A DNA stretch of 64,000 bases from Burkholderiales bacterium (lineage in GTDB: Bacteria; Pseudomonadota; Gammaproteobacteria; Burkholderiales; JACQAP01), in the NCBI GenBank assembly GCA_035549715.1, contig DASZQJ010000150.1, forward strand, positions 3,802 through 67,801, written 5' to 3'. Both the position numbers and the translations under genes were made by a program. Below, piece by piece: positions 40,213 to 50,203 of the stretch. The notes beneath the pieces are model-generated. The model saw only the letters and a list, made by a program, of their open reading frames with translations. It was not told the DNA's origin and did not search any database. Position 1 is the first letter of the stretch; each line of letters begins with the position of its first letter.

Positions 40213-40527
40213 CTACTCCAGGACGACCGCCGTGCCGTAGGCGAGCATTTCCGCCGCGCCCTGCGTGATCGAGGACGTGCTGAAGCGGACATTGAGCACC
40301 GCGTTCGCGCCGACGCCCTGCGCCTGCTGCACCATGCGGTCCGTGGCTTCCTGGCGCGCCTCCTTGAGCAGGTCGGTGTAGCCCTTGAGCTCCCCGCCGA
40401 CGATGTTCTTCAGGCCCGCCATGATGTCCTTGCCGACGTGCTTGGAGCGCACGGTACTGCCCTGCACCAGGCCGAGGTGCTTGACGATGCGGCGGCCGGG
40501 AACGATCTCGAGGTTGCTGATCAGCAT
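40213..40527 (-). CDS. YbjQ (UPF0145) family protein
   Basis: 'GLVQGSTVRSKHVGKD', 'GGELKGY', 'GANAV', 'AYGTAV'. Confidence 0.92.
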   Translation of the reverse strand: MLISNLEIVPGRRIVKHLGLVQGSTVRSKHVGKDIMAGLKNIVGGELKGYTDLLKEARQEATDRMVQQAQGVGANAVLNVRFSTSSITQGAAEMLAYGTAVVLE

Positions 40528-40587
40528 GCGCCATCCTCCCTTGCGGATGCGCGGATTATGCCATCGGCGTCCGGCGCAAGCGTGCGG

Positions 40588-41430
40588 CTACAGGCGCTCG
40601 GCCTTGAAGGTCTCGCAAGCGGAAAGCTCGCCGGATTGCAGCCCGCGGCGGAACCAGCGCACGCGCTGCGCCGAGCTGCCGTGGGTAAAGCTCTCCGGGG
40701 CCACGTAACCGCGTGCCTGCATCTGCAGCCGGTCGTCGCCGATGGCCGCGGCGGCGTTGAGCCCTTCCTCGATGTCACCGGCTTCCAGCACATGCCGGGA
40801 CCGGTCCGCATGGTGCGCCCAGATGCCTGCGAAGCAATCGGCCTGCAGCTCCTGGCGCACGGAGAGCTGGTTCGCCCGCGCCTGGTCGCCGCGCGCCGCC
40901 GCCTCGGCGACCTTGCGCGAGATGCCGAGCAGGTTCTGCACGTGGTGGCCGACCTCGTGCGCGACGACGTACGCCTGCGCGAAATCACCTCGGGCGCCGA
41001 GGCGCCTTTCCAGCGTGGCGAAGAAGTCCAGGTCGAGGTAGACCTTGCGGTCGCCGGAGCAGTAGAACGGACCGACCGCGGCCTGGGCGTAGCCGCAGGC
41101 CGATTGCACGGCGCCCGTGAACAGGACCAGGGTCGGCACGCGGTATTCGGCGCCACCGCGGCCGAAGATGTCGCCCCAGGTGTCTTCCGTGTCCGCCAGG
41201 ACGACGGACACGAAATCCCGGGCGCGGTCCTGCGCCGGGTCGACGGGCGCCGCCCGCGGCGGCGGCGCGGACCCGCCCTGCTGCAGGATGACGCCCGGGT
41301 CCACGCCGAAGAACATGGCGATGAGCGCGACCACGACCACACCGATCCCGCCGCCCGCGATGCCGCCCGGCACGCGCATGCCGCGCCGGTCTTCGATGTT
41401 GTCGCTTCGCCTGCCGTCTTCCCAGCGCAT
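40588..41430 (-). CDS. ypfJ: Neutral zinc metallopeptidase (YpfJ-like)
   Basis: 'RRSDNIEDRRG', 'GPFYCSGD', 'AHEVGHHVQN', 'ELQADCFAG', 'SFTHGSSAQR'. Confidence 0.92.
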   Translation of the reverse strand: MRWEDGRRSDNIEDRRGMRVPGGIAGGGIGVVVVALIAMFFGVDPGVILQQGGSAPPPRAAPVDPAQDRARDFVSVVLADTEDTWGDIFGRGGAEYRVPTLVLFTGAVQSACGYAQAAVGPFYCSGDRKVYLDLDFFATLERRLGARGDFAQAYVVAHEVGHHVQNLLGISRKVAEAAARGDQARANQLSVRQELQADCFAGIWAHHADRSRHVLEAGDIEEGLNAAAAIGDDRLQMQARGYVAPESFTHGSSAQRVRWFRRGLQSGELSACETFKAERL

Positions 41431-41444
41431 GCCGGCCTCCGTGG

Positions 41445-42947
41445 TCAGCTTCCCCGGTAGCGCGCCCGCAGCTGCGCCTTCTGCACCTTGCCCATGGCAT
41501 TGCGCGGCAGTTCATCGACCAGGTATACCTGCTTGGGCACCTTGAAGTTCGCGAGGTTCTTGCGCAGCTCGGCGATGATCGCCGCCGGGTCGAGGCTCGC
41601 GTCCTTGCGCGGGACGATGACGGCCGCCACGGCTTCGCCGAAATCGGGGTGCGGGACGCCGATGACGGCGGACTCGACCACGCCCGGCATGACATCGAGC
41701 GCGAGCTCGATTTCCTTCGGGTAGACGTTGTAGCCGCCGCTGATGATCAGGTCCTTGGCGCGGCCGACGATGGAAAGATAGCCCTCGGCATCGAACGTGC
41801 CGACGTCGCCCGTGCGGAACCAGCCGTCGGCCGTGAATTCCTCGCGCGTCTTTTCCGGCATGCGCCAGTAGCCGCGGAACACGTTCGGGCCCTTGACCTG
41901 GATGCCGCCGATCTCGCCCGCCGGCAGGGGCCGGTCGCCGTCGCCGGCCACGCGCACCGCCACCCCGGGCAGGGCAAAGCCGACGCTGCCGGCGCGGCGT
42001 TCCCCGTCCAGGGGATTGGACGTGTTCATGCCGGTTTCCGACATGCCGTAACGCTCGAGGATGGCCTGGCCGGTGCGGGCCACGAACTCGGAGAAGGTGT
42101 CGGGCAGCAGGGGCGCGGAGCCGGAGATGAACAGCCGCACACCGGCGGTGATCTCCCGCGTGAAACCGGCTTCGGCGAGCAGGCGCGTATAGAAGGTCGG
42201 CACGCCCATCAGCACCGTGGCGCGGTGCAGGTCGCGGATCACCCGCTTTGCGTCGAACTTGCGATGCCAGAGCATCCTCGCCCCGGACAGCAGGGCGCAA
42301 TGGTTGGCCACGAACAGGCCATGCACGTGGAAGATCGGCAGCGCGTGCAGCAGCACGTCGCGTTCGCCGAAGCCCCAATACGCAACCAGGGTGCGCGCAT
42401 TCGACGAAAGATTGCGATGGGTCAGCATTGCCCCCTTGGAACGGCCGGTCGTGCCCGAGGTGTAAAGGATCACGGCCAGATCGTCGCCGTCGGCCGCGAC
42501 CGTCGCGAACCCGGCGGGCTGCCGTGCCGCGGCCTGCGCCAGTTCGCCCCCGCCCTCGTCGTCCAGCCCCAGCACACGGGCCCGCCCGCCACACAGCGCC
42601 TGCATCGTTGGCGCGGACTCGGGACGGCAGACGATCACGCTCGGTTGCGCATCGTCGATGAAATGCGCCAGCTCCCCGCGCTGGTAGGCGGTGTTGAGCG
42701 GCAGGTACACCACGCCGGCCCGCAGGCAGGCCAGGTACAGGAACAGCGACATCGGGGACTTCTCCACCTGCACGGCAACGCGATCGCCGCGCATCGCCCC
42801 GGAGGCCACGAGCAGGTTGGCGATCCGCCCCGACCATTCCGCGGCCTGGGCATGCGTGAAGGTCGCCCCGTCGTCCGTCTCGAGCAGTAGCTGTGTTTCG
42901 CGGCCGCGGGCCGCGGCTTCGATCGCCGCGTGGAAGTTTTCGTTCAT
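41445..42947 (-). CDS. matB: Malonyl-CoA (methylmalonyl-CoA) synthetase MatB
   Basis: ANL motifs 'YTSGTTGRSKGAML', 'LHALPIFHVHGLF', 'ERYGMSET', 'GRAKDLIISGG', 'PRNAMGKVQK'. Confidence 0.92.
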   Translation of the reverse strand: MNENFHAAIEAAARGRETQLLLETDDGATFTHAQAAEWSGRIANLLVASGAMRGDRVAVQVEKSPMSLFLYLACLRAGVVYLPLNTAYQRGELAHFIDDAQPSVIVCRPESAPTMQALCGGRARVLGLDDEGGGELAQAAARQPAGFATVAADGDDLAVILYTSGTTGRSKGAMLTHRNLSSNARTLVAYWGFGERDVLLHALPIFHVHGLFVANHCALLSGARMLWHRKFDAKRVIRDLHRATVLMGVPTFYTRLLAEAGFTREITAGVRLFISGSAPLLPDTFSEFVARTGQAILERYGMSETGMNTSNPLDGERRAGSVGFALPGVAVRVAGDGDRPLPAGEIGGIQVKGPNVFRGYWRMPEKTREEFTADGWFRTGDVGTFDAEGYLSIVGRAKDLIISGGYNVYPKEIELALDVMPGVVESAVIGVPHPDFGEAVAAVIVPRKDASLDPAAIIAELRKNLANFKVPKQVYLVDELPRNAMGKVQKAQLRARYRGS

Positions 42948-44206
42948 ACCAGGGTATCGATGACGCCGGATTGCAAGTAGTCGTCCACGCTCGCCGTCAT
43001 GCTGGAGCGCCGCAGGACCCGCGCGATGGCCGCGGGGGGCAGGATTTGCACGCTGGCGCCGGGCAGCGCGATGACGCGCCCCGCCGGCGCCGCGAGCGCC
43101 ACGTAGATGCCCCCGGCGGCCTCGCCGATGACCTGGAGCGTCACCCGATGGCCGGCCTGCCGCAGGCTGGCAAGCACCAGGGCCAGGTGGGAAACGTATT
43201 CCGACAGCAACACGCGCTCGTCACCGAACGTCGGCGCCTGTCCCGGGGAATCGAGCAGCAGCATGATGGCTTCGCCCGGGTGGGCATCGGCCGCGCGCAG
43301 GCACTCCCCCGCCAGGGTCCAGGCGGCGAGCGCACCCACGGCCACGCCGCCGACGAACCCGAAGTACGTGTTGGGGGCATTCGGCTGCAGGCGGCCGACG
43401 ATGACGCCGTCGATCTGCCTGGCGGTGAAGGTCTCGGGCACCAGGTCCTGCATGACCGCGGGCAGGGACGCCCCAACCTCGGCCGGCGAGGGGGCCATGC
43501 CGTGCTCGAGCAGCCGCGCGGCAAGGCGGTTGTGCTGCCCGCGCAAGTCGGGGGGGCCGGCGGGACGCAGCACCCAGTCGATCGCCGCCTGGCGGTAAGC
43601 ATACAGGCTGTCCTCGTTCAGCCGGCCCGCGGACTCCATCGCCGCGCGCGACGTGCCGCCCATGAGCGCATTGACCGCCTGCTTGTCGGACGCATCGAGC
43701 TCGTTGCGTCCGCCGAGGGCCTGGATGACCGCCGGTCCGGACATCGCCAGCCGGGACGCGACGGCATAGACCCGGTGGCTGCAGGCGGTGGCAAGCATGC
43801 TCGCGCCACCGAAGCAGTCGCGGCCCAGCAGCGCCAGCATCGGCACGCCGGCCAGGCGCAGGTCGAGGACCTGCCGGTACAGCTGGCGGAAGGCGCCCAG
43901 GGCCGGCAGGCCTTCGTCCAGGCGCGCGCCGGCCGAGTCCAGGCAGAGGATGAAGGGCAGGTGCTGCGTCTGGTCCTGGCGCAGCATCGCCGCGAGCGCA
44001 TGGGATTCGACGACGCCGAACGAGCCGCCCGCCGTGTCGCGGTCGGTCGCCGCAATGACCACCGGCTTGCCGCCGAGCAGGCCGGTGCCGGCGCGCAGGG
44101 ATCCGGTCGCCTGGGCGGTCAGGGGCGCGTAGCTGCCAGGGTCGAGCAGCCCCTCGACCTTGTCCTGCGCGCTGCTGCCCGACCAGGTGTCGTCCGGAGC
44201 CGCCAA
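42944..44206 (-). CDS. Fused carboxyltransferase resembling malonate decarboxylase beta+gamma (MdcD-MdcE)
   Basis: N-half 'GGSFG', 'DSAGARLDEG', 'CFGG', 'RLAMSGPAVIQ...G..ELD' (MdcD-like). C-half 'LDSPGQ...DE..L...HL...LR.AGH...GEAAGG' (MdcE-like). Stop overlaps the matB ATG; TTG start. Confidence 0.75.
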   Translation of the reverse strand: MAAPDDTWSGSSAQDKVEGLLDPGSYAPLTAQATGSLRAGTGLLGGKPVVIAATDRDTAGGSFGVVESHALAAMLRQDQTQHLPFILCLDSAGARLDEGLPALGAFRQLYRQVLDLRLAGVPMLALLGRDCFGGASMLATACSHRVYAVASRLAMSGPAVIQALGGRNELDASDKQAVNALMGGTSRAAMESAGRLNEDSLYAYRQAAIDWVLRPAGPPDLRGQHNRLAARLLEHGMAPSPAEVGASLPAVMQDLVPETFTARQIDGVIVGRLQPNAPNTYFGFVGGVAVGALAAWTLAGECLRAADAHPGEAIMLLLDSPGQAPTFGDERVLLSEYVSHLALVLASLRQAGHRVTLQVIGEAAGGIYVALAAPAGRVIALPGASVQILPPAAIARVLRRSSMTASVDDYLQSGVIDTLV

Positions 44207-44215
44207 GGGTCTGCC

Positions 44216-45343
44216 TCAGAAGCCGCACCAGCGGCGCGTGATCTCCTCGTAGGCCGCCACGGCCTCGCGGATGCGTTCGACCACGCAGTACTCGTCGGTC
44301 TGGTGCGCCATCTGCGCCTCGCCGGGGCCGAGGATGACGGTGGGCGGCGAGTCGTAGGCGACGTTGAGCGCCGCCGCGTCGGTGAAGTAGGTGGCGACGC
44401 GAGGTTCCGGGCGCCCGCCAAGGTAGGGCTGCATCACGTCGAAGACTTCCTGCATCCACGCGTGCCCGGGCTCGGTGTACACCGCCTCCAGGTCGAGGAG
44501 CGTCTCCAGCTCCACCTCGCTGCCCAGAAGGGACTGCAACTCCTCGCGCAGCTTCGCGTGGTTCACGGTGGGCACCGTGCGGATGTCCAGCGCCATCACG
44601 GCTTCGTCGGGCACGGAATTGATGTTGAGCCCGCCATGGATGGTGCCGACGTTCAGGGTCGCCTGGCCCATCAGCGGATGCGGCGGATTGCCGAAGCGGA
44701 ACTTCTCCAGCCTCGCGAGCGCGTGGGCGGCCTTGAACACCGCGTTCACCCCCTTCTCCGGCATCGAGCCGTGCGCGGTCACCCCGCGGGTGCGGGCCTG
44801 CAGCCAGAACGCGCCCTTGTGGCCGACGAAGGGAAAGTTCGAACTCGGCTCCGCGACCACGACGGCGCCCGCCCTGCCGAGCGCACCGGATTTGCGCGAC
44901 AGGTGGAAAGCGCCCTGGCAGCCGGTTTCCTCGCCGGCGGTGATCACGAGCTCCAGGCCGGCCGACCGGGGCAGCCTGTCCGCCAGGCGCAGCGAGGAGG
45001 CGACGAAGGCCGCCACGCCGGACTTCATGTCGCTGATGCCGCGTCCATACATGCGGCCGCCATCGGTGTCGGCTGCGAACGGATCCATGGTCCATTTCGC
45101 CGCGCCCAGGGGCACGGTGTCGATGTGGCCCGTGAAGCACAGCGGCTTCCTGTCGCCATTGCCGCCGATGGTCGCGACCAGGCTCGGGCGTCCCGGCGCG
45201 AGTTCGTGGTAGCGGGTCCGGAAGCCGGCGTCCTCCAGCAGCCCGCCGATGTGCCGCGCGCAGGCCTCCTCCGCCCCCGGGGGATTGATGGTGTTCATGC
45301 GCACCAGCTGCTTGCTCAGTTCGACGGCATCGATGGTTGCCAC
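44216..45343 (-). CDS. M20 ArgE/DapE-like metallo-deacylase
   Basis: GTG 45343 with GAAGGAG SD; ligands 'GHIDTVP', 'GRGISDMK', 'GEE', 'VAEP', 'AHQTDE'. Confidence 0.9.
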   Translation of the reverse strand: MATIDAVELSKQLVRMNTINPPGAEEACARHIGGLLEDAGFRTRYHELAPGRPSLVATIGGNGDRKPLCFTGHIDTVPLGAAKWTMDPFAADTDGGRMYGRGISDMKSGVAAFVASSLRLADRLPRSAGLELVITAGEETGCQGAFHLSRKSGALGRAGAVVVAEPSSNFPFVGHKGAFWLQARTRGVTAHGSMPEKGVNAVFKAAHALARLEKFRFGNPPHPLMGQATLNVGTIHGGLNINSVPDEAVMALDIRTVPTVNHAKLREELQSLLGSEVELETLLDLEAVYTEPGHAWMQEVFDVMQPYLGGRPEPRVATYFTDAAALNVAYDSPPTVILGPGEAQMAHQTDEYCVVERIREAVAAYEEITRRWCGF

Positions 45344-45353
45344 GTTTGCTCCT

Positions 45354-46079
45354 TCAACCTGCCTGCGAACGGCCGAAATAGGCCGCGCGGACCTCGTCAT
45401 TCTCGCGCAGTTGCGCGGCGGTGCCCGCCGCGACGACGCGCCCCTGGGACAGGACATAGCCTGCGTGCGCGATGGCGAGCGTCTGGCGCACGTTCTGCTC
45501 CACCAGCAGCACCGTGACGCCGCTATCGGCCACGCGGCGAATCACGTTGAAATTCTCGCGCACATAAAGCGGGGAAAGTCCCAGTGAAGGTTCGTCGAAG
45601 ATGAGCAGCGACGGCGCCGCCATCAGGCCGCGTCCGATGGACAGCATCGCCTGCTCCCCCCCGGACATGGTACCCGCAAGCTGCCTGGCACGTTCCTTCA
45701 GGCGCGGGAAGGTCGAAAACACCTGCGCCATGCGTGCCTCGATCACGCTGGCGTCGGCTTCCCGATAGGCGCCCATGCGCAGATTCTCGACCACGTTCAT
45801 GCGCGCGAACACGCGCCTGCCCTCGGGGATGCAGGCGATGCCACGACGCACGATCTCGTGCGTGGGTCGCCCGGTGATCTCCACCCCCTGGTGCAGGACG
45901 CGCCCCGCGCGCGGGGGGGTGAGCGAAAGGATGGCCCGGATCAACGTCGTCTTGCCGGCCCCGTTTGCGCCCAGGATGCAGGTGATCCGGCCGGCCTGGG
46001 CCTCGAGGTCAACGCCATGCAGCACGTCGGCGCGGTCATAGGCGGCATGCACCTGCTCCAGCTGCAGCACCGGCGCCAC
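45354..46079 (-). CDS. Liv-type ABC ATPase (LivF-like)
   Basis: 'GANGAGKTT', 'IPEGRRVF', 'MSGGEQAML', 'DEPSLGL', 'LVEQN'. Confidence 0.92.
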   Translation of the reverse strand: MAPVLQLEQVHAAYDRADVLHGVDLEAQAGRITCILGANGAGKTTLIRAILSLTPPRAGRVLHQGVEITGRPTHEIVRRGIACIPEGRRVFARMNVVENLRMGAYREADASVIEARMAQVFSTFPRLKERARQLAGTMSGGEQAMLSIGRGLMAAPSLLIFDEPSLGLSPLYVRENFNVIRRVADSGVTVLLVEQNVRQTLAIAHAGYVLSQGRVVAAGTAAQLRENDEVRAAYFGRSQAG

Positions 46080-46080
46080 C

Positions 46081-46857
46081 TCAGTCCTCCCCCAGATAGG
46101 CCTGGCGCACGCGCGCGTGCGCCGCCACTTCCCGGAAACCGCCCTCGGCGATCTTCTCGCCGTAACTGAGCACCACGCAGCGCTGCGTGACGCGCTCGAT
46201 CAGGCCCATCTCGTGCTCGATCAGGATCACCGCCAGCTCGGGCATGCGCTCACGCACGGCGAGCAGGTCATCCATGAACTCCCGCGTCTCATCATGGGTC
46301 ATGCCGGCCGACGGCTCGTCCAGCAGCAGGATCCGGGGCCGCCCGATCAGCGCGCGACAGACTTCGACGCGACGGCGGTCGATCATCGTGAGCGAGGCGG
46401 CGGCCTCGAACAACCGGGCCGCCAGCGACGGGCTGAAGGCGGCGAGCAGCTGTCGTGCGGCCTCGACACCCTCGTCATGCTGCCGGCGCAGGCGGTCGCG
46501 GCGCACGAGGTTGGTCCACAGCCCGAGGTCGAGCTGGCGGTGGTTGCCGATCATCAGGTTGTCGAACACGGTCAGCGGCAGGCACAGCCTCGAGCGCTGG
46601 AACGTGCGCGCCACGCCCGCGGCGCACACCGCGCCTGGCGCGGCGCCTGTAATGTCGACATCACCCACGGCAACCCGCCCGGCGGCGGGGCGGACCAGGC
46701 CGGTGACGCAGTTGAAGAAGGTCGTCTTGCCTGAACCATTGGGGCCGATCAGTCCGAGCAGTTCGCCGGCCTCGAGCGAGAGCTCGAGCGCATCGAGCGC
46801 AGTCAGCCCGCCGAATTTCACGGTGAGCGCCCGCGCCGAGAGGACCGGGGCCGTCAC
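46081..46857 (-). CDS. Liv-type ABC ATPase (LivG-like)
   Basis: GTG 46857 overlapping the permease stop; 'GPNGSGKTT', 'LDEPSAG', 'IEHEM', 'AYLGED'. Confidence 0.92.
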   Translation of the reverse strand: MTAPVLSARALTVKFGGLTALDALELSLEAGELLGLIGPNGSGKTTFFNCVTGLVRPAAGRVAVGDVDITGAAPGAVCAAGVARTFQRSRLCLPLTVFDNLMIGNHRQLDLGLWTNLVRRDRLRRQHDEGVEAARQLLAAFSPSLAARLFEAAASLTMIDRRRVEVCRALIGRPRILLLDEPSAGMTHDETREFMDDLLAVRERMPELAVILIEHEMGLIERVTQRCVVLSYGEKIAEGGFREVAAHARVRQAYLGED

Positions 46858-48011
46858 GCGGACTTCCCTGGGACGAAGTAGGTGCGCAGCGGTCGCGGCA
46901 GCAGGCCTTGCGGCCGGAACAGCAGGATGCCGATGACCAGCAGCGCATACAGCAGGAAGCGGTACTCCTGGATCACCTGCAGCTTCTCGGGCAGCACCAG
47001 CAGCAGCAGCGCGGCGGGCAGCACGCCGAAGGCGTTGCCGAGCCCGCCCAGGATCACGATCGAAACCAGGATCAGCGAATCGCCGAACGTGAAATTGTTG
47101 GGCGCGATGAAGCCGGTCATCATGGCGTAGACGGAACCGGCCATGCCGGCCAGGAAGTTGCCGAGGGTAAAGACGAAAATCTTCCAGCGCGCCACGGCGA
47201 TGCCGAATACCGCTGCGGCAGTTTCGTCCAGCCGCACGGCGTCGAGCGACAAGCCAAGCCAGGAACGCTCCATCCGCCGCACCAGGACGAAGGAGAAAGC
47301 CGCCAGGAGGATCGACAGCGCTGCGTAGGCGAGGTAGAACGACGCCTCGACGCCCGCGCCGAGCACGATGGGGTCGTTGAACGACCAGCCGAACAACGTC
47401 ATGGGCGCCACCTTCAGGCCCTGCGGTCCGCCGAGCGTGTCGTTGACCTCGAGGAAGGTCTTGAACAGGATCCCGAAGGCGATGGTTATGAGCGCGGCGT
47501 AGTGCCCGCGGGTGCGCAGCATCGGCAGGATGAGGATCGAGCCGAGCAGCGCGGCGGCGACGCCCGCAGCGGGAATGATCAGCAGCGGTGGCAGCGGAGT
47601 GTGCGCACCCAGCACCGCGGTGGCATAGCAACCGATGCCGAAAAAGGCGGCGCCGGCGAAATTCACCACGCCGGCGTGGCCGAACTGGAGGGTGAGCCCG
47701 AGGCAAACCGTCACATAGAGCGCGACCGTTGCGAGCATGAGCAGGGCGAAGTGGGCGTCGTACAGCAGGCCGGCGGCCACGGCCGGCACGGCCAGCGACA
47801 GCGCGAAGGCCCGGCGCGGTTGCGCCCGGGCGGCGGCTTCAATGCGCGCCGTCGCCCCGGTCAGGCGGAAGGCAACGAGCACCGCGACCGCACCGGCGCC
47901 CAGCGCGGCAATCTCCCATTGCCGCTCGATCTCCAGGAGCAGCACCGGAAAAGCGATGCCGGCAGCCAGCGCCAGCATGACGGCGATGCCGGTCTTCATG
48001 CAGCCGCTCAT
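46854..48011 (-). CDS. Liv-type ABC permease (LivM-like)
   Basis: 'FGIGCY', 'GGPQG', 'ILGGLGN', 'RPQGL'. Confidence 0.9.
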   Translation of the reverse strand: MSGCMKTGIAVMLALAAGIAFPVLLLEIERQWEIAALGAGAVAVLVAFRLTGATARIEAAARAQPRRAFALSLAVPAVAAGLLYDAHFALLMLATVALYVTVCLGLTLQFGHAGVVNFAGAAFFGIGCYATAVLGAHTPLPPLLIIPAAGVAAALLGSILILPMLRTRGHYAALITIAFGILFKTFLEVNDTLGGPQGLKVAPMTLFGWSFNDPIVLGAGVEASFYLAYAALSILLAAFSFVLVRRMERSWLGLSLDAVRLDETAAAVFGIAVARWKIFVFTLGNFLAGMAGSVYAMMTGFIAPNNFTFGDSLILVSIVILGGLGNAFGVLPAALLLLVLPEKLQVIQEYRFLLYALLVIGILLFRPQGLLPRPLRTYFVPGKSA

Positions 48012-48014
48012 CGC

Positions 48015-48932
48015 CTAGACGCGCTCCACGGATTTCTCGGCGATCAGGCCGGTGGGCTTCCAGGCCATGATCAGGATGACGGCGGCGAAGGCGAACACGT
48101 CCTTGTAAGCGGGGACCGAGAACCAGACCGCGCCGGCGGTCTGCAGAAGGGCGAACAGGAACCCGCCCAGGATGGCGCCGTAGACGTTGCCCAGGCCGCC
48201 CACCACGGCAGCCGAGAAGCCGATCACGCCCAGCAGCAGTCCCATGCCGAAGTTGATCTCGTTGTAGTAAAGCCCGTTGGTCACGCCCGCCAGCGCCGCC
48301 AGCGCCGATCCCAGCGCGAAGGTGAGCATCACCACCCGCTCGAAATTGACGCCCATGACGCGCGCCGTTTCAGGATCCTGGGCGACGGCGCGGATGGCGA
48401 GCCCGAGCCGGGTGCGGGTGATGAGCAGGTGCACGGCAACGATCGCCAGGATGCCGGTGGCGAGCAGGATCAGGCTGTCGGCGCGCAGGGAGAAATTCCC
48501 CATCGCGTACGCGTCCGTCGGCAGCAGTTGCGGAAAAGGCTTGGGATTGGATCCGTTCGGATAGAAAAGGCGCACGGCTTCGCGCAGCGCCAGCCCCAGC
48601 ATCAGGGTGATGAGCAGCGTGTTGAGCGGCGGGCTGCGCCGCAACGGCAGCACCAGGAAGCGCGCGATTGCCGCGCCGAGGACCGCCGTCACCGCCAGCG
48701 CCGCCAGGCAGGCGCCCGCGAGCAGGGCGATGCTGGATTCGACGCCCGCATGCCGCAGGCCCGCGTAGGAGGCCAGGGCGGCGAAGGCCCCGGCCATGAC
48801 CACGTCGCCATGGGAAAACTTGATGACGTCGAGCACGCCGAAAAACAGCGTGAAGCCGACGGCGACCATGGCGTAGATCACGCCGAGCATCAGGCCGTTG
48901 AGGATGAACTGGCCTGCGAGTCCGGGATCCAT
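48015..48932 (-). CDS. Liv-type ABC permease (LivH-like)
   Basis: 'QFILNGLMLGVIYAMVAVG', 'AVAQD', 'VVGGLGN', 'KPTGL'. Confidence 0.92.
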   Translation of the reverse strand: MDPGLAGQFILNGLMLGVIYAMVAVGFTLFFGVLDVIKFSHGDVVMAGAFAALASYAGLRHAGVESSIALLAGACLAALAVTAVLGAAIARFLVLPLRRSPPLNTLLITLMLGLALREAVRLFYPNGSNPKPFPQLLPTDAYAMGNFSLRADSLILLATGILAIVAVHLLITRTRLGLAIRAVAQDPETARVMGVNFERVVMLTFALGSALAALAGVTNGLYYNEINFGMGLLLGVIGFSAAVVGGLGNVYGAILGGFLFALLQTAGAVWFSVPAYKDVFAFAAVILIMAWKPTGLIAEKSVERV

Positions 48933-48942
48933 CAGCCGGGAT

Positions 48943-50100
48943 TCAGGGCCTGGGCAGCTTGCGCTTGCCCCGGGCGTACTCGCTGTCCTCCCAGACCATC
49001 CACTTGCCGTCCTGGACGACGAACTTGGTGATCAGGGGCACGGTGTTCTGTCCGTGGTCGTCGAACGTGATCGGGCCGACGATGGACTGGTGATCACGGG
49101 TCGCGTTGAGTTCGCGCATGATTTTCCTGCGGTCCGGGCCGACCTTCTCCACCGCGTCTATGATCAGGTTGGCCGCCGCATAGGCGAACGCGCCGTAGGC
49201 TTCGGGCGGATCCGCGTAGTTCTGCCTTGCATACTGCTCCAGGAAGGCCTTGCCGCCCGGCAGCTTTTCCGCCGGCGCGCCTTCCCTGAAGGCGAGCGTG
49301 CCTTCGGCGAGCGGGCCGAGTCCCTCGATGAAGGCATCGGAAACGATGCCCGAGGTGCCCTGGAACACGGCCTTGATCCCGAGCTTCTCCATCTGCGATC
49401 GGATGCGCACGCCGATCGGCGTGAGCCCGCCGAAGTAGATGACCTCGGGTTTGAGTTCCTTGATCTTGGTGAGCTCGGCATTGAAGTCCTGCTGGTCCGC
49501 GGTCACGCCGAACGTGCCGACGATCGTGCCGCCGAGGCCGGCGATGTCCTCGGAGAAGTACCTGTTGTGGCCCTTGCCGTAGTCGGTCGTGTCGTGAATC
49601 ACCACCCACCTGCGGTATTTCAGGCCCGCCATGAACTTCGCCGCGACGTCGTTCTGGTTGATCATGGTGCCGTTCACGCGATGCACCTCGTCGTAGTCGT
49701 GCGCGTAGGTCACGTCGGGCAACACCGCGCCCCAGATCACCACCGGCAGGCCGAACTTGTGGTAGACGTCGACCGTGCCCATCGCGACGGCAGAACAATA
49801 GTGGGTGACGCCGGCAACGATCTTGCGGTCGGCCGCCGCCTTGGTTGCCACCTGCACGCCGATGTTGGGCTTGCATTCGTCGTCGAGGACGACGAGCTGG
49901 TACTCGTACCGGGTGACGGGGTCGGCATTGCGCACGCGCACCGCCAGGTCGGCGGAGTTGCGGCCGCCGAGGCCGTTGGCGGAGACGCCGCCAGTGAGCG
50001 GGCCGATGAAGGCGATGCTCACCTTGTCCTTGGCCAGCGCGCCGGCGGCCGCCAGCAGCAGCGGCAACAGGGCAAGCAGGCGGATCAGCGATGATGTCAT
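48943..50100 (-). CDS. Liv-type (HAAT) periplasmic substrate-binding protein
   Basis: ATG 50100, signal peptide; 'GPLTG', 'DDECKP', 'THYCS', 'HDTTDYGKG', 'GPITFD'. Confidence 0.92.
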   Translation of the reverse strand: MTSSLIRLLALLPLLLAAAGALAKDKVSIAFIGPLTGGVSANGLGGRNSADLAVRVRNADPVTRYEYQLVVLDDECKPNIGVQVATKAAADRKIVAGVTHYCSAVAMGTVDVYHKFGLPVVIWGAVLPDVTYAHDYDEVHRVNGTMINQNDVAAKFMAGLKYRRWVVIHDTTDYGKGHNRYFSEDIAGLGGTIVGTFGVTADQQDFNAELTKIKELKPEVIYFGGLTPIGVRIRSQMEKLGIKAVFQGTSGIVSDAFIEGLGPLAEGTLAFREGAPAEKLPGGKAFLEQYARQNYADPPEAYGAFAYAAANLIIDAVEKVGPDRRKIMRELNATRDHQSIVGPITFDDHGQNTVPLITKFVVQDGKWMVWEDSEYARGKRKLPRP

Positions 50101-50128: not shown

Positions 50129-50157
50129 AGCGTATTGAGTGCCTTCGGGCTTGTCAA
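50129..50157 (-). promoter_or_regulatory. Sigma70 promoter of the liv-M20-mdcDE-matB operon
   Basis: TTGACA (50157-52)-17 nt-TACGCT (50134-29), just downstream of the atp terminator. Confidence 0.7.
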
Positions 50158-50173: not shown

Positions 50174-50203
50174 AAAAAAAAAGCGGCCGGCGGCCGCTCT
50201 TTT
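50174..50203 (-). terminator. Intrinsic terminator of the atp operon
   Basis: AGCGGCC/GGCCGCT stem followed by nine T on the minus strand. Confidence 0.85.

Follow-up and report, generated by a model that had tools for sequence, protein, structure and literature searches.

Why would a bacterium place a complete amino-acid-type importer and an amidohydrolase directly ahead of genes for malonate activation? The question is raised by eight tightly spaced, co-oriented genes on the minus strand (41445-50100) of a 64,000-nucleotide (nt) stretch of DNA, hereafter the window, which lies on contig C150 of the 3.46-Mb assembly of an uncultured Burkholderiales bacterium (G000). The genes follow the terminator of the atp operon and encode a Liv-type ATP-binding cassette (ABC) importer, a hydrolase of the M20 family (M20), a single chain that joins homologues of the malonate decarboxylase subunits MdcD and MdcE (the fused protein, or MdcDE), and the malonyl-coenzyme A (CoA) synthetase MatB. 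An earlier sequence-only reading had proposed that they form an undescribed catabolic operon that opens an N-malonyl (or methylmalonyl) conjugate. We find that they very likely form a real operon composed of these families, that the linkage of M20, MdcDE and MatB is kept across five families of Burkholderiales, and that MatB and the fused protein, judged by their sequences, probably turn malonate into acetyl-CoA. The further proposal, that the importer and M20 supply this module with its substrate, is weighed below against three alternatives.

An eight-gene operon behind the atp terminator

Gene families were assigned with Pfam and NCBIfam models. The features of the locus, in the direction of transcription, are as follows.

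50174..50197, minus strand: intrinsic terminator of the atp operon, a GC hairpin and nine-T run directly after the atpC stop codon (read from the sequence)
50129..50157, minus strand: sigma-70-like promoter, TTGACA (50157-50152), 17 nt, TACGCT (50134-50129) (read from the sequence)
48943..50100, minus strand: HAAT/Liv-type substrate-binding protein (SBP) with signal peptide (Peripla_BP_6, E 8e-44)
48015..48932, minus strand: LivH-type permease (BPD_transp_2, E 4e-47; LivH and UrtB models below cut-off)
46854..48011, minus strand: LivM-type permease (BPD_transp_2, E 2e-36)
46081..46857, minus strand: LivG-type ATPase (ABC_tran and BCA_ABC_TP_C; GTG start)
45354..46079, minus strand: LivF-type ATPase (ABC_tran and BCA_ABC_TP_C; LivF model 238.6 bits, below cut-off)
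44216..45343, minus strand: cytoplasmic DapE/ArgE-family M20 amidohydrolase (TIGR01910, 241.7 bits against a cut-off of 217.6)
42944..44206, minus strand: single-chain MdcD-MdcE-like protein of 420 residues (Carboxyl_trans, residues 33-182; MdcE, residues 289-401)
41445..42947, minus strand: MatB malonyl-CoA synthetase (NF005702, 787.4 bits against a cut-off of 558)
40588..41430, minus strand: YpfJ-type Zn metallopeptidase (NF050010, 373 bits against 250), outside the conserved core

Within the importer, the SBP and LivH genes are 10 nt apart, LivH and LivM 3 nt, LivM and LivG overlap in GTGA, and 1 nt separates LivG from LivF. A 10-nt gap containing AGGAG leads from LivF to M20, followed by a 9-nt gap to MdcDE and an ATGA overlap between MdcDE and MatB. 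The sequence-only reading had described eight co-oriented genes joined by overlaps or by gaps of at most 10 nt, and its coordinates and junctions proved correct; so did its list of parts, namely a complete Liv-type importer, M20, an MdcD-MdcE-like fusion and MatB, which the family models bear out.

The promoter that it had placed past the atp terminator can likewise be read in the DNA, with GAGG standing between TACGCT and the start codon of the SBP gene (ATG at 50100). A consensus promoter scanner called no site at the operon start, because its rule for the -10 element is stricter. The pattern TTGACA-N17-TAnnnT recurs, at the same distance past atpC, in most related loci, and it does so independently of which gene comes first: TTGACAAGGCGCGGCCGAGCCCATAGCCT precedes SBP, TTGACAAGGACCGCGCAAGCCCATAGCCT precedes M20 and TTGACAAGCAGCGCGCAAGCTCATAGCCT precedes MdcDE. 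This recurrence speaks for a functional promoter, which would serve whichever gene lies behind it. An Rfam search of the leader returned no riboswitch or leader RNA, only a chance miRNA-like match. Metatranscriptome contigs of 158-182 nt over 42800-45500 match parts of M20 and MdcDE, none of them crossing a gene junction, and provide weak evidence of expression. We tentatively regard the locus as a polycistronic catabolic or salvage operon under a conserved promoter downstream of atp, a view to which we give slightly less than even weight.

At the other end of the operon, the YpfJ-type gene starts 14 nt past MatB, preceded by GGAGG, and a YbjQ-like gene follows it after 60 nt (40380-41430 for the two). 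No terminator was found between MatB, the YpfJ-type gene and the YbjQ-like gene, so that the 3' boundary of the operon stays open and read-through into these genes may occur; the YpfJ-type gene is possibly co-transcribed with the operon. It follows MatB in many loci with a Liv-type importer and is absent from those with the Dpp-type importer described below.

Linkage of M20, MdcDE and MatB across the order

We compared the operon proteins with 100 related loci by tblastn and surveyed 401 sampled Burkholderiales genomes. The close relatives are all uncultured Burkholderiales from metagenomes, and near-identical DNA is present in soil, root and rhizosphere metagenomes. MatB lies directly after MdcDE in all 80 related loci in which the contig reaches far enough to judge. 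The full order of atpDC, five Liv genes, M20, MdcDE and MatB occurs in many loci, down to an MdcDE identity of 38%, and within the genus of G000 the adjacency of M20, MdcDE (where present) and MatB is seen in about 22 of 24 genomes. Among the 401 genomes, M20 orthologues (at least 64% identity) stand about 1.3 kb upstream of MatB in five families (labeled f1, f4, f11, f34 and f45), and in most of these loci the importer is linked to M20-MdcDE-MatB as well. The sequence-only reading had proposed, as a check, a search for conserved co-occurrence of M20, an mdcDE-like gene, matB and liv; such co-occurrence exists, with M20-MdcDE-MatB kept across five Burkholderiales families and the importer ahead of it varying.

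Two departures from the full order are informative. Some loci lack the importer altogether and run atpDC-M20-MdcDE-MatB (L019, L026, L058 and others). The genus labeled g62, whose genomes have 2 Mb and 47% GC, shows atpDC followed by five Liv genes, M20 and MatB, and here M20 and MatB are only 44-67 nt apart; these genomes have no MdcDE of the operon type, and their sole MdcDE-like gene is a distant paralogue in another cluster. Separately, in L022 and L053 (G015:C5) the SBP and M20 genes are each in two pieces, with one in-frame TGA in SBP, and these split genes are either pseudogenes or assembly errors.

The hydrolase, the fused protein and the importer

M20 is an additional paralogue whose active site is intact, distinct from the housekeeping DapE. 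In 47-48 of 48 distinct orthologues the metal ligands (H72, D104, E137/E138, E164, H346) and the lid histidine H190 are unchanged, and across this set 134 of 374 positions are at least 98% conserved. M20 has no signal peptide; the ArgE/DapE-like assignment with all metal ligands, made in the sequence-only reading, thus agrees with the TIGR01910 score and with the orthologues. Among solved structures DapE and ArgE come nearest; these enzymes take a succinyl or an acetyl group off an alpha-amino group. With these M20 shares the fold and dimerization lid, the metal ligands and, by prediction, the chemistry of short-acyl removal (of a dicarboxylic acyl group in the case of DapE). It differs from them in its low score on the proteobacterial DapE model TIGR01246 (118 bits against a cut-off of 361.8) and in a context that looks catabolic rather than biosynthetic. 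An ordinary DapE would have spoken against the proposal; the genome carries its canonical DapE elsewhere (G000:C110:19169-20275), with 557 bits on the same model.

The fused protein consists of an N-terminal half of the MdcD/Carboxyl_trans type and a C-terminal half of the MdcE type. Its scores fall below the equivalog cut-offs (beta, 128.7 bits against 228; gamma, 97.9 against 237), and its closest solved relatives by sequence are Pseudomonas aeruginosa MdcD (E 1.6e-16) and MdcE (E 4.7e-5). An AlphaFold model, built from 18 diverse family members, reached a mean predicted local distance difference test (pLDDT) score of 89.9 and a predicted template modeling (pTM) score of 0.92, and over its full length Foldseek matched it to 12S transcarboxylase, PCC beta and AccD6 (E ~1e-21). 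According to the model and alignment, the protein has the pair of crotonase-like domains and the backbone oxyanion hole that characterize the carboxyltransferase superfamily: the oxyanion-hole positions V121 and G162 of MdcD (PMC5534430) correspond to A94 and G134, and G134 is invariant in the 18 diverse members. The equivalent of MdcD Arg180 is not conserved in the family. Since canonical MdcD-MdcE decarboxylates free malonyl-CoA in vitro, if weakly (PMC5534430), the fused protein is a candidate malonyl-CoA or methylmalonyl-CoA decarboxylase that would depend on neither acyl carrier protein (ACP) nor biotin.

What else in these genomes could use the product of MatB? MatA (MCD family, PF05292) was found in none of G000, the 24 genus genomes and 10 further genomes of f4, f34 and f45, and the same search was positive in G030, G037 and G039. 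MdcA (TIGR01110) was detected only in G028, G031 and G033, and neither in G000 nor elsewhere in the genus; a tblastn search with the MdcA of G031 gave no match in G000, and searches of the whole G000 assembly with the MdcC, MdcB and MdcG of G031 gave none at E <= 0.01, the short MdcC limiting the sensitivity. With MatA and the Mdc machinery absent, no enzyme but the fused protein is apparent in these lineages that could take the MatB product.

The operon can be set beside two known bacterial malonate systems. In common with matABC of Rhizobium leguminosarum bv. trifolii (An & Kim 1998, pmid 9826185, as listed in PMC12799670), it has a MatB that would make malonyl-CoA from malonate, a predicted decarboxylation to acetyl-CoA and a transporter encoded alongside. 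It differs in that the MdcD-MdcE-like protein takes the gene position of MatA, which the genome lacks, in that the transporter is an amino-acid/peptide-type ABC importer instead of MatC, and in the added DapE/ArgE-type amidohydrolase; no MatC-type or tripartite ATP-independent periplasmic (TRAP) carrier and no GntR-type MatR was found in the cluster, whose neighbors are the ABC importer, atp and the YpfJ/YbjQ genes. It resembles MdcACDE of Pseudomonas and Acinetobacter (PMC5534430) in retaining the glycine of the oxyanion hole and in the homology of the fused halves to MdcD and MdcE. In contrast to that system, it has one 420-residue chain in place of chains of ~290 and 270 residues, with identities of ~28-29% and scores below the equivalog cut-offs, it has no MdcA, MdcC, MdcB or MdcG, and where that system has the ACP transferase cycle, its partner is an ATP-dependent CoA ligase. 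Canonical malonate clusters of the same order carry DctP/TRAP-type carriers. One canonical cluster (L030, G031:C40, 448-8171) runs mdcA-C-D-E-G-B-H and then matB, 59% identical to the MatB of the operon, which may supply malonyl-CoA to prime ACP through MdcH.

An exhaustive profile-free search put the fused family at 89 clusters at 50% identity (E <= 1e-30), mostly of 380-450 residues. The current labels of the fused protein are "malonate decarboxylase gamma subunit" or "acetyl-CoA carboxylase carboxyltransferase". Two representative proteins combine MdcDE and a MatB-like ligase in one polypeptide. In L117 (G291:C19, 7749-10549) the open frame around MatB is 942 residues long and may be an MdcDE-MatB fusion too. 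A paralogous cluster in L023 (G015:C8, 7402-13566) holds an alpha/beta hydrolase (PcaD/MenH/RutD-like), MdcDE, MatB and a major facilitator superfamily (MFS) carrier, and metagenomic locus L119 (1114-4794) has an alpha/beta hydrolase and an MFS carrier beside one 939-residue MdcDE-MatB polypeptide; both again pair a hydrolase and a carrier with the MdcDE-MatB module. Farther away, L123 (5043-13430) and L126 (G087:C6, 4382-12766) carry a distant MdcDE-like fusion (26% identity) beside an enzyme of the benzoate-CoA-ligase family, together with a Peripla_BP_6 SBP, LivHMGF and an alpha/beta hydrolase, and may encode a so far undescribed pathway for a carboxy-aromatic acid or one like it. We considered the distant MdcDE-like protein P0200, with its CoA ligase, Liv importer and alpha/beta hydrolase, as an independent recurrence of the operon and rejected it: because its ligase is of the benzoate-CoA ligase family, its cluster belongs to a different pathway.

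The importer has the same five-component architecture and the same families as Escherichia coli LivJHMGF, but all of its components score far below the equivalog cut-offs. The nearest solved relatives of the SBP are E. coli LivK and LivJ (E 1e-33 to 1e-29). Compared with the pocket residues listed for LivJ (PMC6983066), C78, S79 and Y150 are kept and about half are changed (Y18N, L77Y, A100G, T102V, Y202L and E226S). The changed positions include T102 and Y202, which in LivJ hold the free amino acid. E226, which we take to hold the alpha-ammonium group of the ligand, is altered likewise. Such a pocket fits a ligand other than a free alpha-amino acid, and it is not diagnostic.

In some loci the place of the Liv genes is taken by a Dpp/Opp-type ABC importer (SBP_bac_5, two permeases, two oligo_HPY ATPases), which lies on the opposite strand between atpC and M20. 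Every Dpp-type locus retains livF remnants in the spacer between dppA and M20 (L015, L016, L017, L037, L042 and L043), for example the decayed fragment ...CAGCTTGCGGGTACCATG..., extending to ~550 nt in L042. From this debris we conclude that the Dpp cassette took over the site of the Liv importer. The two importers exclude each other: an orthologue of the Liv SBP is missing from the Dpp-type genomes, and one of that DppA from G000. On the MatB tree, the Dpp-type loci fall here and there among Liv-type loci from the same genus, and well-supported branches force at least three changes; given the livF scar common to all of them, we read the pattern as one replacement that was later spread by recombination. 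If this reading holds, the swap is a clean natural case of non-orthologous transporter displacement.

The proposed pathway and its alternatives

In the proposed pathway, drawn from gene order and family membership, the Liv-type importer, or the Dpp-type one in sister genomes, would take up a small amide-linked compound resembling an amino acid or dipeptide. Cytoplasmic M20 would then cleave the amide and free a short dicarboxylic acid, most likely malonate, in which case the substrate would be an N-malonyl amino compound. MatB, whose family membership is clear, would join the acid to CoA, and the fused protein would decarboxylate the resulting malonyl- or methylmalonyl-CoA to acetyl- or propionyl-CoA without ACP or biotin, a role that MatA fills in rhizobia. 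That M20 and the importer feed the module of MatB and fused protein in this way strikes us as a close call, leaning slightly toward the negative. That the substrate is specifically an N-malonyl conjugate we consider rather doubtful, and a dedicated route for plant N-malonyl conjugates (malonyl-ACC, where ACC is 1-aminocyclopropane-1-carboxylate, N-malonyl-D-amino acids or malonylated xenobiotic amines) would be unlikely.

Several observations weigh against this pathway. On the MatB tree every M20-linked locus falls in one clade (support 95/96), and a linkage limited to one monophyletic clade implies a single evolutionary event and possibly inherited synteny. In other families, homologues of M20 at 50-62% identity lie away from MatB, and in two related loci (L069 and L075) M20 has been lost and MdcDE-MatB kept. 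The M20 homologues in G037 and G039 (51-54% identity), among unrelated neighbors (GDH, PmbA and Rieske oxygenases), are uninformative. The sister clade of Usitatibacter has MdcDE-MatB with neither M20 nor an ABC importer. There, in at least 12 genomes, the operon runs, with short gaps, through a YdiJ-like FAD and iron-sulfur oxidase, MdcDE, MatB, MatA (MCD family, E 9e-96) and DUF1178 (for example L086, 6996-14402; also L088, L091, L093, L097, L098, L107 and L108), and in other genomes of the clade it is MdcDE-MatB-DUF1178 without MatA. The presence of MatA and MdcDE in one operon argues that the fused protein may be more than a substitute for MatA. No regulator, riboswitch or other clue to the ligand was found at the operon. 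Last, if its streamlined genome indicates that g62 is not plant-associated, the substrate need not be derived from plants.

Much of this would also be expected if two unrelated modules share one transcript by descent, a nitrogen-scavenging importer with an M20 that acts as peptidase or deacylase, and a separate MatB-MdcDE pair that clears or assimilates free malonate, whether of internal origin or brought in by other carriers. Mammalian ACSF3 and malonyl-CoA decarboxylase offer a parallel for such a pair. MdcDE-MatB indeed stands alone in the Usitatibacter clade and in G015:C8, the site beside atp is fixed in the chromosome as for vertically inherited housekeeping genes, and the single origin of the M20 link and its loss in L069 and L075 fit as well. 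We nevertheless favor a functional link over plain synteny, because the loss of the importer, or of MdcDE, leaves M20 linked to MatB, because the importer was exchanged at the same site for one of another type rather than only deleted, and because the arrangement is kept in the 2-Mb genome of g62, where M20 has closed up to MatB after the loss of MdcDE. Two independent modules are a serious alternative, though one that we would not bet on.

A different possibility, which we consider improbable, keeps the pathway and changes the acid: the fused protein would act on methylmalonyl-CoA or another carboxy-acyl-CoA, and the operon would handle a methylmalonyl- or alkylmalonyl-type acid or conjugate. 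MatB enzymes do accept methylmalonate, the MdcD Arg180 equivalent is not conserved, and the distant family member beside a benzoate-CoA-ligase-family enzyme indicates that the family pairs with different ligases. The coexistence with classical MatA in the Usitatibacter operon points the same way, as it suggests that one decarboxylase does not simply stand in for the other, and a preference of the fused protein for methylmalonyl-CoA, or kinetics unlike those of MatA, may be the reason. The Usitatibacter state may instead be an intermediate stage of a displacement that was completed in the operon's own clade. On the other side, the oxyanion-hole motif is retained, and f1, f4, f34 and f45 lack MatA, which would leave malonyl-CoA made by MatB without any other dedicated sink. 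Least probable of all, by a clear distance, is that the importer carries free malonate or another dicarboxylate and that M20 stands outside the pathway. Binding proteins of the HAAT family bind many ligands other than amino acids, and the pocket is remodeled relative to LivJ, but this explanation accounts neither for the retention and conservation of M20 nor for the replacement by a peptide-type Dpp importer, and the canonical malonate clusters of the order rely on DctP/TRAP-type carriers instead.

The N-malonyl-conjugate pathway of the sequence-only reading thus stands in part: the M20-MdcDE-MatB linkage, the extra M20 paralogue and the absence of MatA and Mdc support it, and the single origin, the M20-free sister clade with MatA and the unlinked homologues speak against it. 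Its remark that it knew of no described operon of this kind agrees with our literature searches on MatB with MdcD/E and on bacterial N-malonyl amidohydrolases, which turned up no match; nor did they yield a single-chain MdcDE-type malonyl-CoA decarboxylase or a bacterial route that reopens N-malonyl conjugates. The operon appears to be a new variant of MatB-based malonate use, for which the N-malonyl-conjugate reading is an attractive one. If the fused protein acts as proposed, it would be an unrecognized type of malonyl-CoA decarboxylase, might become a compact part for engineering, and would correct the labels that it now bears.

It would take proof of the conjugate hypothesis for the operon as a whole to gain interest. 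The surroundings of roots are rich in malonate and malonylated compounds, and N-malonylation is the main way in which plants park ACC, D-amino acids and some xenobiotics. If the hypothesis is true, M20 would be the first bacterial N-malonyl-amino-acid amidohydrolase, the locus would provide a defined gene set with which to test the bacterial reopening of N-malonyl conjugates, and root-associated Burkholderiales could reopen the "inactive" pools of ACC and D-amino acids of plants.

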